A stretch of DNA of 2,241 nucleotides from NCBI RefSeq assembly GCF_003334815.1, contig NZ_QOWO01000087.1; one strand, 5' to 3'. Source of the DNA: Escherichia coli (GTDB lineage Bacteria; Pseudomonadota; Gammaproteobacteria; Enterobacterales; Enterobacteriaceae). The notes beneath the pieces were generated by a model. The model did no database searches, was not told the origin of the DNA, and saw only the letters and a list, made by a program, of their open reading frames with translations. Of the stretch, positions 1 through 2,241 are shown piece by piece (the first letter of the stretch is position 1; every line of letters starts with the position of its first letter). The position numbers and the translations under genes are program-made.

Positions 1-183
1 GTCCTCAAAATTCCAGGAGCGCCAGATCAACGTGCCATCCTGACGGACAACCAGGCGAAAATGCGTTCCCTGATCATCCTCGATAAAGACATTCCGGTAC
101 TGTGTAACAACGGTTTCAGCACACTCGCGGGTGAATGCCCCATCGGGTAGTTCATGAATCATTTCATCGGATTTGTTCATCAT
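1..183 (-). CDS. Partial CDS (N-terminal ~60 codons; 3' end lies beyond position 1) of a hypothetical plasmid leading-region protein immediately downstream of ssb
   Basis: Minus-strand frame is open from ATG at 180 (alternative ATG at 183) to the window edge with no stop: [60 protein letters not shown]... GGAG (complement of 188-191) lies 7 nt upstream of the ATG at 180. Amino-acid composition is ordinary, not GC-artefact-like. Same strand as ssb, 53 bp downstream. Not in the supplied ORF track, presumably because no stop is in the window. Family not recognised. Confidence 0.55.
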
Positions 184-197
184 CGTTCTCCGGTAAT

Positions 198-216
198 GCC
201 CCACACATGGTGGGGC
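198..216. other. Intercistronic hairpin (7-bp stem 198-204/210-216, 5-nt loop) between the ssb stop and the downstream ORF start
   Basis: GCCCCAC-acatg-GTGGGGC is perfectly self-complementary by direct base pairing. On the minus-strand RNA it is not followed by a U-tract, so it is not a canonical intrinsic terminator. Confidence 0.6.
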
Positions 217-236
217 TGTCAGAAAAATCAGCCAGA

Positions 237-764
237 TCAGAATGGCGCATCATCGTCGTAGCCATAAGGAGGTTCTGGCTGTTGTTGAGGCTGAGGCTCT
301 GGCTGCGCGGCCTTACGTCCACGGCCTTTCGTTTTCGCGCCACCTTTTTTCGTCGCGTCAGCACTCTGTGGCTGCCCATTCTGCTGAGGCTTCGGTTGCG
401 CCTGAGCGTTCTGCTGTGGTGCACGTCCCAGCATCTGCACGGTGCCCGTGGTCTTAACAAGAATTTCAGTGACGTAACGGGTGATACCGTTATCTTCCCA
501 GCTACGGGTGCGAAGCTGACCTTCGATGTAGACCTGCGCACCCTTGCGCAGATATTCACCTGCCACTTCCGCGAGCTTGCCGAACAGCACCACGCGGTGC
601 CATTCCGTCTGCTCCCGCATCTCCCCCGTCTGTTTGTCACGCCAGCTTTCTGATGTGGCCACCTGCAGGTTTGCCACTGCGCCCCCGTTGGGGATGTAAC
701 GGACTTCCGGATCATTGCCCAGACGCCCGACGAGGATGACCTTGTTGATACCACGTGCACTCAT
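237..764 (-). CDS. ssb: Single-stranded DNA-binding protein, plasmid-type SSB (175 aa)
   Basis: The translation matches the E. coli SSB OB-fold block nearly residue for residue as I recall it ([81 protein letters not shown]), followed by a Gln/Pro/Gly-rich disordered linker and the acidic C-terminal tip DDDAPF (E. coli: DDDIPF). AGGAGG (complement of 770-775) sits 5 nt upstream of the ATG at 764. Stop TGA is the complement of 237-239. Confidence 0.95.
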
Positions 765-769
765 AAGAA

Positions 770-775
770 CCTCCT
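770..775 (-). promoter_or_regulatory. Shine-Dalgarno sequence of ssb (AGGAGG, 5-nt spacer)
   Basis: The minus strand reads CAGTCAGGAGGTTCTT-ATG. Confidence 0.85.
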
Positions 776-833
776 GACTGAAAGATGTGAGATAAACCGG
801 ATACCGGCGACGGGACGTTCATGTGCCCCTTCA

Positions 834-851
834 GAGGAGCGAAAGCTCCTC
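834..851. other. Hairpin with 7-bp stem and GAAA tetraloop (GAGGAGC-gaaa-GCTCCTC)
   Basis: Perfect complementarity 834-840/845-851 with loop 841-844. On the plus strand the loop is a GNRA-type sequence. Confidence 0.6.
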
Positions 852-856
852 CTGCC

Positions 857-890
857 GTCCACTTCACAGGGGTTTCTCCCCGCAGTGGAC
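857..890. other. Imperfect two-part hairpin (outer stem 857-863/884-890, inner stem GGGG 869-872 / CCCC 878-881, loop tttct)
   Basis: GTCCACT...AGTGGAC outer arms are perfectly complementary (7 bp); the inner GGGG/CCCC stem is separated from it by an internal loop. Confidence 0.5.
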
Positions 891-922
891 CTTTCCGATG
901 GGGGCCCGTTTACCGCCTCACG

Positions 923-934
923 GGACAGCTGTCC
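923..934. repeat. 12-bp perfect palindrome GGACAGCTGTCC (contains CAGCTG)
   Basis: The sequence equals its own reverse complement. A second CAGCTG-centred palindrome, GCAGCTGC, occurs at 1270-1277. Confidence 0.7.
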
Positions 935-939
935 GGGGG

Positions 940-987
940 CGGACGCAAAATTTTTAGCCGGGTTCATGGCTAAAAATTTTGTGGCCG
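940..987. repeat. Perfect 14-bp AT-rich inverted repeat (946-959 / 968-981) with 8-nt spacer, extendable imperfectly to 940-987
   Basis: CAAAATTTTTAGCC-gggttcat-GGCTAAAAATTTTG: every one of 14 positions pairs. Flanking 940-945/982-987 add four Watson-Crick pairs with one G-T and one mismatch. It is the only AT-rich perfect hairpin in an otherwise GC-rich region. Confidence 0.85.
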
Positions 988-1092
988 GTGCATCTCACCC
1001 TGGACAGATGGAACGGGAGGGGGTTACGTCTGCCCCCCGGAAAGTCCACAGCGGGAAACAGGCCGCAGGGGTGGCGGCAGGAGGGAAGACTG

Positions 1093-1134
1093 CTGCGCCA
1101 TCAGGCGCAGTTTCCTCACACACCGTCAGGTGTG
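1093..1134. other. Two adjacent tetraloop hairpins (CTGCGCC-atca-GGCGCAG at 1093-1110; CACACC-gtca-GGTGTG at 1119-1134)
   Basis: Perfect 7-bp and 6-bp stems confirmed by base pairing, separated by 8 nt. Confidence 0.6.
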
Positions 1135-1150
1135 CAGGGAGCGCAGGTCA

Positions 1151-1185
1151 CGGCGCGACAGGGGCGGCGCGACCGGAACGGTCGC
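1151..1185. repeat. Direct repeat CGGCGCGAC x2 (1151-1159, 1165-1173); the second copy overlaps a hairpin GCGACC-ggaac-GGTCGC (1169-1185)
   Basis: Exact 9-bp direct repeat with 5-bp spacer, read directly. The hairpin has a 6-bp perfect stem. Confidence 0.6.
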
Positions 1186-1358
1186 TGCAAGCCGGGTTTT
1201 CACGCATCGGACCGTAGCGGCAGCCCGAAACCGCGCCAGCGGGTTCGGCGGAGACTGGCGGGTGCGCCAGCAGCTGCCTGTCGGAGTCGGGCCTGACGAC
1301 CGGATGCCGCCAGGCAGCCGGGAGCCGAAGTGGGCGCAATAAAAGACAGCCAGAAACG

Positions 1359-1371
1359 GTGACAGTGTCAC
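1359..1371. repeat. 13-bp palindrome GTGACA-g-TGTCAC; candidate operator for a dimeric DNA-binding protein
   Basis: Six-bp arms are perfectly complementary around a central G. It lies in the only AT-richer patch (about 1331-1410) of the intergenic region. The operator role is inference. Confidence 0.45.
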
Positions 1372-1373
1372 GG

Positions 1374-1382
1374 AATATCACA
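1374..1382 (-). promoter_or_regulatory. Possible extended -10 element (TGtGATATT on the minus strand) for conventional transcription toward ssb
   Basis: Minus strand reads TG-t-GATATT. The hexamer keeps the A at -11 and T at -7 but has G at -12, and there is no good -35. A start site about 7 nt downstream would fall inside the 1359-1371 palindrome. Weak, by-eye call. Confidence 0.2.
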
Positions 1383-1434
1383 CCTGTTCCCTGCATACAG
1401 CCATACACTACCTTCTGACCGGAAAGCCGGGCCG

Positions 1435-1453
1435 GCAGCGCCGCAGGCGCTGC
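1435..1453. other. Hairpin with 8-bp GC stem and 3-nt loop (GCAGCGCC-gca-GGCGCTGC)
   Basis: Perfect pairing 1435-1442/1446-1453. Confidence 0.6.
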
Positions 1454-1466
1454 ACCCCGCATTTCC

Positions 1467-1525
1467 GGCAGGCGTCAGCCTGCCAGGGGTTTTCGCGCGG
1501 GCTGACAGGCGGCCTCCACCGCCTG
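1467..1525. other. Two GC-rich hairpins in the 3' untranslated region of the 63-aa ORF (1467-1484 GGCAGGC-gtca-GCCTGCC; 1506-1525 CAGGCGG-cctcca-CCGCCTG), the second nested inside CAGGGG (1484-1489) / CCCCTG (1526-1531)
   Basis: Perfect 7-bp stems confirmed by pairing. Neither is followed by a U-tract on the minus-strand RNA, so an intrinsic terminator is not supported. Confidence 0.5.
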
Positions 1526-1533
1526 CCCCTGTA

Positions 1534-1725
1534 TCACCTGTTTCTGCTGCCCTGAAGGATGTAGTGACCGCCGAGGAATACAGCCTGCTGATTCGCCACA
1601 AAATCGCAGATTTCATCAACAATCTGCGCAGTGGTGAGCGGTTTCTGCCCCATTTCACGACGCCGCGCATTAATCACGGCTTTGTAATTGCGCAGAATTT
1701 CGCGGGTTTCTGTGCTGATATTCAT
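1534..1725 (-). CDS. Small hypothetical protein (63 aa, mildly basic), translationally coupled to the upstream 140-aa ORF
   Basis: The ATG (complement of 1723-1725) overlaps the upstream stop TGA (complement of 1722-1724) in an ATGA arrangement. GGGGAG lies 8 nt upstream of the ATG. Composition is ordinary. It may belong to a small leading-region protein family (DUF905-like is a recollection of typical plasmid annotations, unverified). The competing track ORF 1368-1670 is GC-artefact-like. Confidence 0.6.
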   Translation of the reverse strand: MNISTETREILRNYKAVINARRREMGQKPLTTAQIVDEICDFVANQQAVFLGGHYILQGSRNR

Positions 1726-2144
1726 GACATGTGCTCCCCGTCCAGCGCCTGTAACACAACGTCCATTGCTTCGCGTTCTTCCCTGACGAATGCGTCACCG
1801 TCGCCCCCGTTCTCGCTCCCGACGGCATACAGGCGCTTCATTTCACTGCCTGCCAGCGCCATCACTTTTTCCAGCATCACCGCCGGAACTGTCACCTGAC
1901 GGCTGGCGCGCTTTTCTTCCATCAGCTCACGAACAACGTCGTGAACAATGCTGACATCCGCACCATGCTCAAAGGCATCGTCCAGTCGCTGCATGACGGT
2001 TTCCAGCTCATCGTCTGTCAGACTCCAGTCCTGGGCTATGTGACGCACATCCCCACGGGTCAGCACCACGGCAAAAACGCATTCACTGTCCGGCACGTCT
2101 GTGTTCAGCACTTCGCGGATAATTTCTTTAACAGTACAGTACAT
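1722..2144 (-). CDS. Hypothetical strongly acidic protein (140 aa; about 30 Asp+Glu vs 14 Lys+Arg by my count), leading-region gene of unknown function
   Basis: Long clean ORF with AAGGAG (complement of 2153-2158) 8 nt upstream of the ATG at 2144. Same orientation as ssb. Family not recognised with certainty (DUF1380-like is a recollection, unverified). Confidence 0.75.
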   Translation of the reverse strand: MYCTVKEIIREVLNTDVPDSECVFAVVLTRGDVRHIAQDWSLTDDELETVMQRLDDAFEHGADVSIVHDVVRELMEEKRASRQVTVPAVMLEKVMALAGSEMKRLYAVGSENGGDGDAFVREEREAMDVVLQALDGEHMS

Positions 2145-2152
2145 GTTCTCGT

Positions 2153-2158
2153 CTCCTT
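2153..2158 (-). promoter_or_regulatory. Shine-Dalgarno sequence (AAGGAG) of the 140-aa ORF
   Basis: Minus strand reads AAGGAGACGAGAAC-ATG, an 8-nt spacer. Confidence 0.8.
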
Positions 2159-2162
2159 TACA

Positions 2163-2181
2163 GGGGCGGCATTGCCGCCCC
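2163..2181. other. Intercistronic GC hairpin (8-bp stem GGGGCGGC / GCCGCCCC, 3-nt loop) just upstream of the 140-aa ORF ribosome-binding site
   Basis: Perfect pairing 2163-2170/2174-2181. On the minus-strand RNA it is followed by UGUAAAGGAG, not a U-tract. Confidence 0.6.
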
Positions 2182-2190
2182 GTCCGTTAA

Positions 2191-2241
2191 TCAGTCCAGT
2201 GCCGCGTAAATCGCGTTGCATTCGGGGTGAAATTCGATGTG
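2191..2241 (-). CDS. Possible 3' end of an upstream minus-strand gene (fragment only)
   Basis: One minus-strand frame is open from the window edge to a TGA at 2191-2193 (...HIEFHPECNAIYAALD*). A second frame is open to a TAA at 2188-2190 and the third frame is also open, so the true frame cannot be decided from about 50 nt. Supported only by the downstream hairpin and the operon-like context. Confidence 0.25.
   Translation of the reverse strand, partial: HIEFHPECNAIYAALD

Follow-up and report, generated by a model that had tools for sequence, protein, structure and literature searches.

The reading of leading-region genes from the entering strand, in the direction of oriT, has been established since 1999 and was confirmed between 2020 and 2025 by oriT inversion, promoter deletion and RNA-seq of transconjugants. 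The rule that relates the template strand to the transferred strand has been stated and was put to the test with an IncI1 plasmid whose oriT had been inverted (PMC7736820), and in F, deletion of Frpo2 was found to abolish the early expression of ssb (PMC9849209). For pESBL, six single-stranded-DNA promoters including ssi1 to ssi3 were mapped by 5' RACE, genes of the leading region were induced up to ~500-fold, and early transient expression from ssi1 to ssi3 was observed in transconjugants by 5' RACE and RNA-seq (PMC12672017). In IncI-gamma plasmids, the ssi3 operon has been described as SSB, YfhA and PsiB-PsiA (PMC10104558). The orientation reported here for the window, by which we mean the whole 2,241-nt stretch of Escherichia coli DNA analysed, is established biology, already known from Bates 1999, PMC7736820 and PMC12672017. 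Its value is one of annotation only: the polarity of the window is fixed, with position 1 ~9.8 kb from the nick, positions 831 to 1161 are named ssi3, and the gene at 237 to 764, ssb, is the first downstream of this putative single-stranded-DNA promoter and the first of the ssi3 operon.

The leading regions of ColIb-P9 (IncI1, AJ238399; Bates et al. 1999), R64 and pESBL-EA11 were identical in gene order and orientation to those of the plasmids matching the window. The order in common with ColIb-P9 was klcA-like, DUF1380, 63-aa ORF, ssi3, ssb, ykfF, yfhA, psiB, psiA, ardA, oriT and nikAB; the ssi3 elements were nearly identical (Table 1), and the three dispersed ssi copies of ColIb-P9 likewise lie in one orientation. 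The closest full-length matches, however, were by type not IncI1 but IncI-gamma/K1 or IncK2/Z, and there were small sequence differences from ColIb-P9, none of them in organisation. In F, whose leading region carries Frpo2 (Masai & Arai 1997; Couturier et al. 2023), synteny was kept from the klcA-like gene to psiB, the transferred strand is likewise transcribed in the direction of oriT, window positions 1463 to 2241 were 96.9% identical, and the apex and architecture of the hairpin were conserved with compensatory changes. F differs in its MOBF relaxase and in the sequences of its oriT and nic; its ssb segment was only 80.5% identical, and blastn matched the hairpin only in patches. A sequence-only reading had derived transcription towards oriT by analogy with F and I1, and the F and IncI-complex records share this layout. 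That reading had also expected a hok/sok-like flm locus at lower coordinates, which is true of F, where flm lies between psiA and Frpo1, but not of these IncI plasmids, in which the stretch from the window to oriT contained none. In NZ_CP019173.1, the Hok/Gef gene was located beyond nikB-trbABC, on the last-transferred side.

Among the matches listed, five plasmids, typed IncI-gamma/K1 or IncK2/Z, aligned with the window from end to end, with one mismatch (C1268 vs A). Because every best match differs from the window at this position, its flanks were inferred from near-identical plasmids, principally NZ_CP019173.1, which was turned to the orientation of the window (L001) and contains it at 20001 to 22241. 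A search of 50,697 phage records gave no real match, and a phage origin was therefore rejected.

Every supported gene in the window was found on the minus strand (Table 1), as had been claimed from the letters alone. The gene ykfF, the second of the ssi3 operon, begins with a start codon at 180 to 178 and leaves the window at its low end. At the other end, the KlcA/ArdB-like gene contributes its 16 last codons and stop, with the rest past the high end; the full gene in L001 matched phrog_10132, "anti-restriction protein" (E 9.2e-20). The 63-aa ORF overlaps the stop codon of the DUF1380 gene by ATGA, and the klcA operon ends with it. The annotated 104-aa ORF is probably spurious: it had no family match, the paralogous repeat copy has a broken frame and lacks the N-terminal half, and the ORF annotated at the equivalent place in F is on the other strand. 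The statement on strand is unaffected either way. Two long plus-strand ORFs, at 135 to 653 and 885 to 1217, lie antisense to ssb or within the hairpin region and gave no match in family searches. Across the entire window, a scan for sigma-70 double-strand promoters gave no match, shuffled sequences had terminator-like sites at least as often, and an Rfam scan (E up to 1) returned two chance snoRNA-like matches and nothing else.

Table 1. Features of the window and of its low-coordinate flank. Positions are those of the window unless L001 (NZ_CP019173.1 in window orientation) is given; a slash marks the assigned cleavage position.
Feature	Position	Strand	Match or basis
ykfF (DUF905 family), 5' part	1..180	-	WP_001042947.1, L001 19947-20180; phrog_8779 E 1.3e-34
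ssb, plasmid, 175 aa	237..764	-	WP_001276123.1; NCBIfam NF010292 368.4 bits, cut-off 265
ssi3 ("Frpo3") homologue, putative class 1 single-stranded-DNA promoter	831..1161	+	329/331 identity to ColIb-P9
Dispersed direct repeat carrying ssi element, full extent	834..1510	+	blastn
Long imperfect ssi3 hairpin (predicted)	848..1083	+	ssDNA fold, covariation
"Hypothetical protein" ORF, 104 aa	1148..1462	-	annotated; without family match
63-aa ORF	1534..1725	-	WP_001027495.1, annotated here in IncI record and F
DUF1380 family gene, 140 aa	1722..2144	-	WP_000271763.1; phrog_9024 E 1.4e-5
KlcA/ArdB-like antirestriction gene, 3' end	2191..2241	-	WP_001198928.1, L001 22191-22616
psiB	L001 17438-17872	-	NZ_CP019173.1
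psiA	L001 16722-17441	-	NZ_CP019173.1
ardA	L001 15166-15666	-	NZ_CP019173.1
R64-type oriT core GGCAATTGTAATAGCGTCGCGTGTGACGGTATTACAATTGCACATCCTG/TCCC	L001 10110-10163	+	NZ_CP019173.1

The layout of the flanks was compared in five records covering four replicon types (NZ_CP019173.1, an IncI-gamma/K1 E. coli plasmid, IncK2/Z, IncI1/B/O and F). Towards lower coordinates, the order was ParB-like yfhA, psiB, psiA, ardA and then oriT with nikA/nikB, the latter replaced in plasmid F by the relaxosome genes traM/traY. The predictions that oriT lies past the low-coordinate end and that psiB and psiA come beyond position 1 were thus both borne out, with psiB and psiA located between the window and oriT. 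A DNA methylase was present at higher coordinates in the flanks checked, in agreement with a methyltransferase predicted there, whereas a ParB-like gene placed on the same side was found instead at lower coordinates, between the DUF905 gene and psiB. In NZ_CP024481.1, ISEc12 is inserted within this ParB-like gene, and a group II intron insertion occurs in this region in IncF relatives.

The oriT is of the R64/RP4 MOBP type, in which ATCCTG/Y comes 8 nt after an inverted repeat, beside nikA and nikB, and the same arrangement was found in four plasmids. In NZ_CP019173.1, the inverted repeat and then CACATCCTG/T occur on the window-plus strand, outside the window and 9.84 kb below position 1, with nikA and nikB directly below the core and the window on the opposite, first-transferred side. 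The core (inverted repeat plus CACATCCTGTCCCGTTTTTC) was on the window-plus-equivalent strand in 4/4 IncI-complex plasmids; in IncK2/Z the repeat arms differ and the nick region is identical. The position of the nick within the core is the one that we take to hold for R64. NikB cleavage at G/T is known for R64 (Furuya & Komano 1991, cited in PMC3817090). From the strand and distance of the core, it follows that the plus strand is transferred and that position 1 enters the recipient before position 2241, as the sequence-only reading had proposed.

The strand of the genes led to the same assignment. In NZ_CP019173.1, the nick site and the DUF1281 gene delimit 16.3 kb with 22 to 23 annotated genes, of which ~20 were on the window-minus strand, and ssb, psiB, psiA and ardA are co-oriented there, with the transferred strand as their template. 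As the plus strand is the template, it is by this rule also the transferred strand; both parts of this earlier claim agree with the location of the nick motif. In F, used as a control, the nic motif GGGGTGT/GGTGCTTT was on the strand that serves its leading-region genes as template.

The ColIb-P9 counterpart of positions 831 to 1161 was AJ238399.1:11381-11711, on the same strand (PMC11541004, Supplementary file 4), and this segment also aligned with F Frpo1 and Frpo2. Its predicted hairpin has an apex loop at 960 to 967 (GGGTTCAT), an A/T-rich apex stem (940-959 / 968-987) and, in its 3' arm, a bulge (~988-1000) that is conserved and unpaired; this bulge and TGGAC on the 3' arm were present in 5/5 class 1 copies. 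As single-stranded DNA, positions 830 to 1110 folded at -90.7 kcal/mol (z = -10.4, 0/200 shuffles as good) vs -77.1 for the complement, and positions 831 to 1161 at -103.7 on the plus strand vs -88.1. Seven leading-region hairpins were compared in this way (three IncI ssi copies, F Frpo1 and Frpo2, and the klcA and ardA class 2 elements), and in all seven the inferred transferred strand folded better than its complement, by 4 to 17 kcal/mol. Compensatory changes were observed at 25 of the 64 consensus pairs (7 homologues), and the conserved pairs include several of the G-T type, which are possible on the plus strand alone. Neither inspection by eye nor a scripted linear scan gave a consistent -35/-10 hexamer pair common to the five class 1 copies, and the promoter assignment of 831 to 1161 therefore rests on homology to characterised elements. 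By that homology, the segment is predicted to be a promoter active on the plus (transferred) strand, with transcription towards lower coordinates into ssb. Gene strand and hairpin strand bias can orient such an isolated fragment without its flanks.

Taken together, these data leave us highly confident that the window belongs to the leading region of an IncI-complex conjugative plasmid (ColIb-P9/R64-like; MOBP relaxase, MPF_I), with the plus strand transferred and ssi3 on that strand. On the transferred strand, with the oriT nick as the starting point of the count, the window would represent approximately nt 9,842 to 12,082.

Transfer of the minus strand, with the co-orientation reflecting ordinary operons whose double-stranded promoters act once the complementary strand has been made, would be compatible with the genes of the window, whose co-orientation alone does not tell which strand is transferred, and the strand of the nick is here deduced from a motif. 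In four IncI-complex plasmids, that motif nonetheless occupied the plus strand, the F control agrees with the plus strand, the plus-strand hairpins folded better in every comparison, and the window had no match to a double-strand promoter. In addition, TTGCAT-N15-TAAGAT is present on the plus-strand 3' arm of the class 2 element that lies just above the window, and the experimental literature favours the plus strand (PMC12672017, PMC9849209, PMC7736820). We consider transfer of the minus strand extremely improbable.

Slightly less remote, though still very unlikely, is that the window is a leading-region module that no longer sits beside a working oriT in its actual source, having come to lie in a non-mobilizable or rearranged plasmid or in a chromosomal insertion; in that case, the strand logic would apply to the ancestral arrangement alone, and oriT would not literally lie beyond position 1. 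The one-base difference from every best match leaves room for this, as do the insertions known in the region (ISEc12 in NZ_CP024481.1, the group II intron in IncF relatives), and 466 among the 5000 best-scoring plasmid records were typed non-mobilizable. In E. coli genomes, 278 of 13,673 places were chromosomal, but the 98% that were on plasmids make a chromosomal origin unlikely. Moreover, the five near-identical full-length matches, NZ_CP019173.1 among them, were all complete plasmids, and the three that were inspected (H1, H2 and H5) were typed conjugative, MOBP and MPF_I and had the canonical layout. An intact conjugative plasmid remains the preferred source.

On such a plasmid, the NikB relaxase would nick the window-plus strand at ...CACATCCTG/T... 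and remain on the 5' end, and the strand would be fed 5' to 3' into the recipient, window position 1 before 2241. There, while the plus strand is single-stranded, positions 848 to 1083 may fold into the ssi3/Frpo hairpin and act as a promoter for the host RNA polymerase, which would read the plus strand 3' to 5', towards oriT. The ssi3 mRNA would be expected to cover ssb, ykfF, ParB-like yfhA, psiB and psiA. The genes at 1534 to 2241 (klcA, DUF1380 and the 63-aa ORF) would form the preceding operon, for which a hairpin promoter of the second class, just above the window, would presumably act in the same manner. Once the complementary strand is made, the hairpins would be lost and the promoters switched off. 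In this scheme, gene content and strand, oriT synteny, the strand of the nick motif, ssi3 identity and the strand-biased hairpin come from the present analysis; published work on close homologues supplies the position of the nick, the activity of the promoters, their transcription start sites and the transience of expression.

The ssi element is carried on a dispersed repeat, of which two further copies were found nearer to oriT in the same orientation. By blastn, window positions 834 to 1510 matched L001 14491-15137 at 82.8%, and positions 834 to 1162 matched L001 11622-11949 at 79.6%; the positions of these copies match ColIb-P9 ssi2 and ssi1. All three copies are direct and correspond to ColIb-P9 Frpo3, Frpo2 and Frpo1 in the published list. 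On the transferred strand, the hairpin is closely followed on its 3' side by a GC-rich block at ~1133 to 1336, part of the 680-nt repeat. It is doubtful that this block constitutes a separate functional single-strand element, such as a priming or protein-loading site or the homing target of the group II intron that occurs there. Two copies within one plasmid hardly differed at positions ~1160 to 1323, whereas their hairpins were only ~83% alike, and the block was ~96% conserved in Klebsiella IncF plasmids.

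The window was compared by megablast with 72,556 plasmids, and at least 5000 records matched. Among the matches listed, five plasmid records covered it entirely with one mismatch. Compared base by base, NZ_CP019173.1 differed at window position 1268 (C in the window, A in the plasmid); the remaining best full-length matches scored equally, which means a one-base difference in each of them too. Three of these five were examined and were conjugative, of types MOBP and MPF_I, with IncI-gamma/K1 or IncK2/Z replicons. Nearly all places found in complete E. coli genomes were plasmid (13,395/13,673), and phage records gave no real match. 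The exact source record was not found, and the flanks were therefore taken from near-identical plasmids rather than the window's own replicon, which is the main residual uncertainty.

The plus strand of the intergenic stretch beside nikA in NZ_CP019173.1, turned to the window's orientation (L001), reads GGCAATTGTAATAGCGTCGCGTGTGACGGTATTACAATTGCACATCCTGTCCCGTTTTTC. This is an R64-type oriT core, comprising a 17-bp inverted repeat and, 8 nt further, ATCCTG|T, the nick region of the IncP/IncI type. Cleavage presumably falls at the R64 position, reportedly established by Furuya and Komano in 1991, a study cited in PMC3817090. The motif sits on the window-plus-equivalent strand in 4/4 IncI-complex plasmids, and the plus strand would therefore be the one transferred, starting at L001 10160, with window position 1 entering as nucleotide ∼9,842 and position 2241 as ∼12,082. 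The two repeat arms of the IncK2/Z plasmid are different (GGGAATGTC...GACATTCCC) but its nick region is the same, a pattern that a genuine oriT should show. As a control, the TraI nic sequence of F, GGGGTGT|GGTGCTTT, was located on the template strand of the F leading-region genes. These data support the sequence-only reading, in which the plus strand is transferred and oriT lies beyond the low-coordinate end.

Below the window, L001 carries DUF905, yfhA, psiB, psiA, ardA, small genes, the intergenic stretch, nikA, and nikB, all on the minus strand except two small genes near oriT (MobC-like and HTH regulator). Above it, the minus-strand run continues through the remainder of klcA, a DNA methylase, and a DUF1281 gene, beyond which the orientation reverses at DinI-like and umuDC-like genes, followed by partition and replication genes. 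The order was identical in an IncI-gamma/K1 E. coli plasmid, the IncK2/Z plasmid, and an IncI1/B/O plasmid. The anticipated psiB and psiA below position 1, methyltransferase at higher coordinates, and transcription toward oriT were thus all found, the last in F likewise, where synteny is conserved and the order toward oriT is klcA-like, DUF1380, 63-aa ORF, Frpo2, ssb, DUF905, ParB-like, psiB, hok, Frpo1, oriT, and traM. The ParB-like gene, expected at higher coordinates, is at lower ones in IncI plasmids and F alike. A hok/sok locus, predicted between the window and oriT, is absent there in these IncI plasmids, which have their Hok/Gef gene past nikB-trbABC, on the side transferred last; in F, by contrast, hok lies between psiB and Frpo1. 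For some IncI relatives, hok-mok has been reported within the leading region (PMC3817090). In the IncI-gamma/K1 plasmid, the otherwise near-identical NZ_CP024481.1 (L004), ISEc12 (IS21 family) interrupts yfhA at 9932-12234, which increases the window-to-oriT distance. Changes to yfhA that cause loss of function have been seen in evolution experiments (PMC10104558).

Coordinates of features in the window (L001 20001-22241), in L001, and in two IncF plasmids (L008, L009)
Feature	Coordinates	Strand	Remarks
ykfF (DUF905)	window 1-180	-	first 60 codons
ssb, plasmid type	window 237-764	-	NCBIfam NF010292, 368 bits (cut-off 265)
RefSeq hypothetical protein	window 1148-1462	-	104 aa, inside ssi repeat
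63-aa ORF	window 1534-1725	-	
DUF1380 gene	window 1722-2144	-	
KlcA/ArdB-like antirestriction gene	window 2191-2241	-	last 16 codons
nikB	L001 7025-9724	-	
nikA	L001 9735-10067	-	
Intergenic stretch beside nikA	L001 10068-10300		oriT core
ssi repeat, ColIb-P9 ssi1 position	L001 11622-11949		
ssi repeat, ColIb-P9 ssi2 position	L001 14491-15137		
ardA	L001 15166-15666	-	several small genes between it and the oriT side
Region upstream of ardA	L001 15667-16128		
psiA	L001 16722-17441	-	
psiB	L001 17438-17872	-	
yfhA (ParB-like)	L001 17927-19885	-	below window, after DUF905
Region upstream of klcA	L001 22617-23027		just above window
Homologues of window 1133-1336 and 1337-1533, ltrA group II intron between them	L008 4001-6468		
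Homologues of window 1133-1336 and 1337-1533, ltrA group II intron between them	L009 2252-4197		

Window 831-1161 matched ssi3 of ColIb-P9 ("Frpo3"; AJ238399.1:11381-11711) on the same strand at 329/331 positions; Frpo3 is among five reference single-stranded-DNA promoters (Supplementary file 4, PMC11541004). Folded as ssDNA, plus-strand 830-1110 formed a single long imperfect hairpin (848-1083, apex loop 960-967) at -90.7 kcal/mol (z = -10.4, 0 shuffles as good), versus -77.1 for the complement. The inferred transferred strand folded better by 4 to 17 kcal/mol in three IncI ssi copies, F Frpo1, F Frpo2, and two class 2 hairpins (upstream of klcA and of ardA). A consensus fold of seven homologues kept 64 pairs, 25 with compensatory changes, and several of its conserved G-T pairs are possible only on the plus strand. 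An unpaired 3'-arm bulge at window ∼988-1000 (+) reads GGTGCATCTCACC, with GTATATCTT in the middle copy and TTCATTTAC in F Frpo2; each of the five class 1 copies has this bulge, and it may contribute to promoter recognition. No -35 or -10 hexamers could be placed in the class 1 hairpin.

By analogy with close homologues, from which promoter activity is taken, the best-supported mechanism is one already published. In it, the plus strand would enter the recipient with NikB on its 5' end, and the ssi3 hairpin would form while the strand is single stranded. Host RNA polymerase would initiate on it and read the plus strand toward oriT through ssb, ykfF, yfhA, psiB, and psiA, until complementary-strand synthesis abolished the hairpin. 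This mechanism is preferred because of four lines of work: 5' RACE and RNA-seq of IncI1 pESBL transconjugants, showing six ssDNA promoters including ssi1-3 (PMC12672017); Frpo2 deletion in F (PMC9849209); oriT inversion in pESBL (PMC7736820); and the ssi3 operon as described for IncI-gamma plasmids (PMC10104558). All findings have already been described for ColIb-P9, R64, pESBL, and F and are therefore not new.

The klcA operon, which precedes that of ssi3, includes the genes at 1534-2241 and has its class 2 hairpin promoter immediately above the window. Between the region upstream of klcA and the one upstream of ardA, identity is 92.4% over 355 nt; each folds more stably as the plus strand, carries TTGCAT-N15-TAAGAT on its plus-strand 3' arm, and corresponds to the "class 2" single-stranded-DNA promoters of the literature.

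ORF listing and family searches placed every supported gene of the window on the minus strand, as had been claimed, and long plus-strand ORFs had no family match. The 769-nt GC-rich stretch between ssb and the 63-aa ORF (765-1533) gave no double-strand promoter or Rfam match. The hypothetical protein within it is probably an annotation artefact: it had no family match, the paralogous repeat copy has a disrupted frame and lacks the N-terminal half, and at the equivalent place F is annotated with an ORF on the other strand. Short GC-rich hairpins were noted in the ssb/ykfF (GCCCCAC-ACAT-GGTGGGGC, window 198-216) and klcA/DUF1380 (GGGGCGGCA-TT-GCCGCCCC, 2163-2184) intercistronic gaps.

The ssi element occurs as three direct repeats, the other two lying between the window and oriT. 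The repeat shared by window 834-1510 and the ssi2-position copy spans ∼680 nt, twice the listed 331-nt Frpo3; window ∼1160-1323 is almost identical between them and the hairpin part ∼83%. Both Frpo elements of F have flanks that share 92% identity with window 1133-1204. Relative to F (L003), window 1463-2241 (the klcA, DUF1380, and 63-aa ORF part) is 96.9% identical, with one accession common to the 63-aa protein of F and of the window's plasmid record; window 1-755 (ssb and DUF905) is only 80.5% identical, and the hairpin gives blastn matches in patches only. This mosaic identity suggests that IncF and IncI plasmids have exchanged leading-region segments, the breakpoints falling within the repeat. 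Many database matches split at 1336/1337 because, in IncF plasmids from K. pneumoniae and E. coli, an ltrA group II intron parts homologues of 1133-1336 from those of 1337-1533. Another ltrA lies elsewhere in the IncK2/Z plasmid's leading region (L005 8638-10362).
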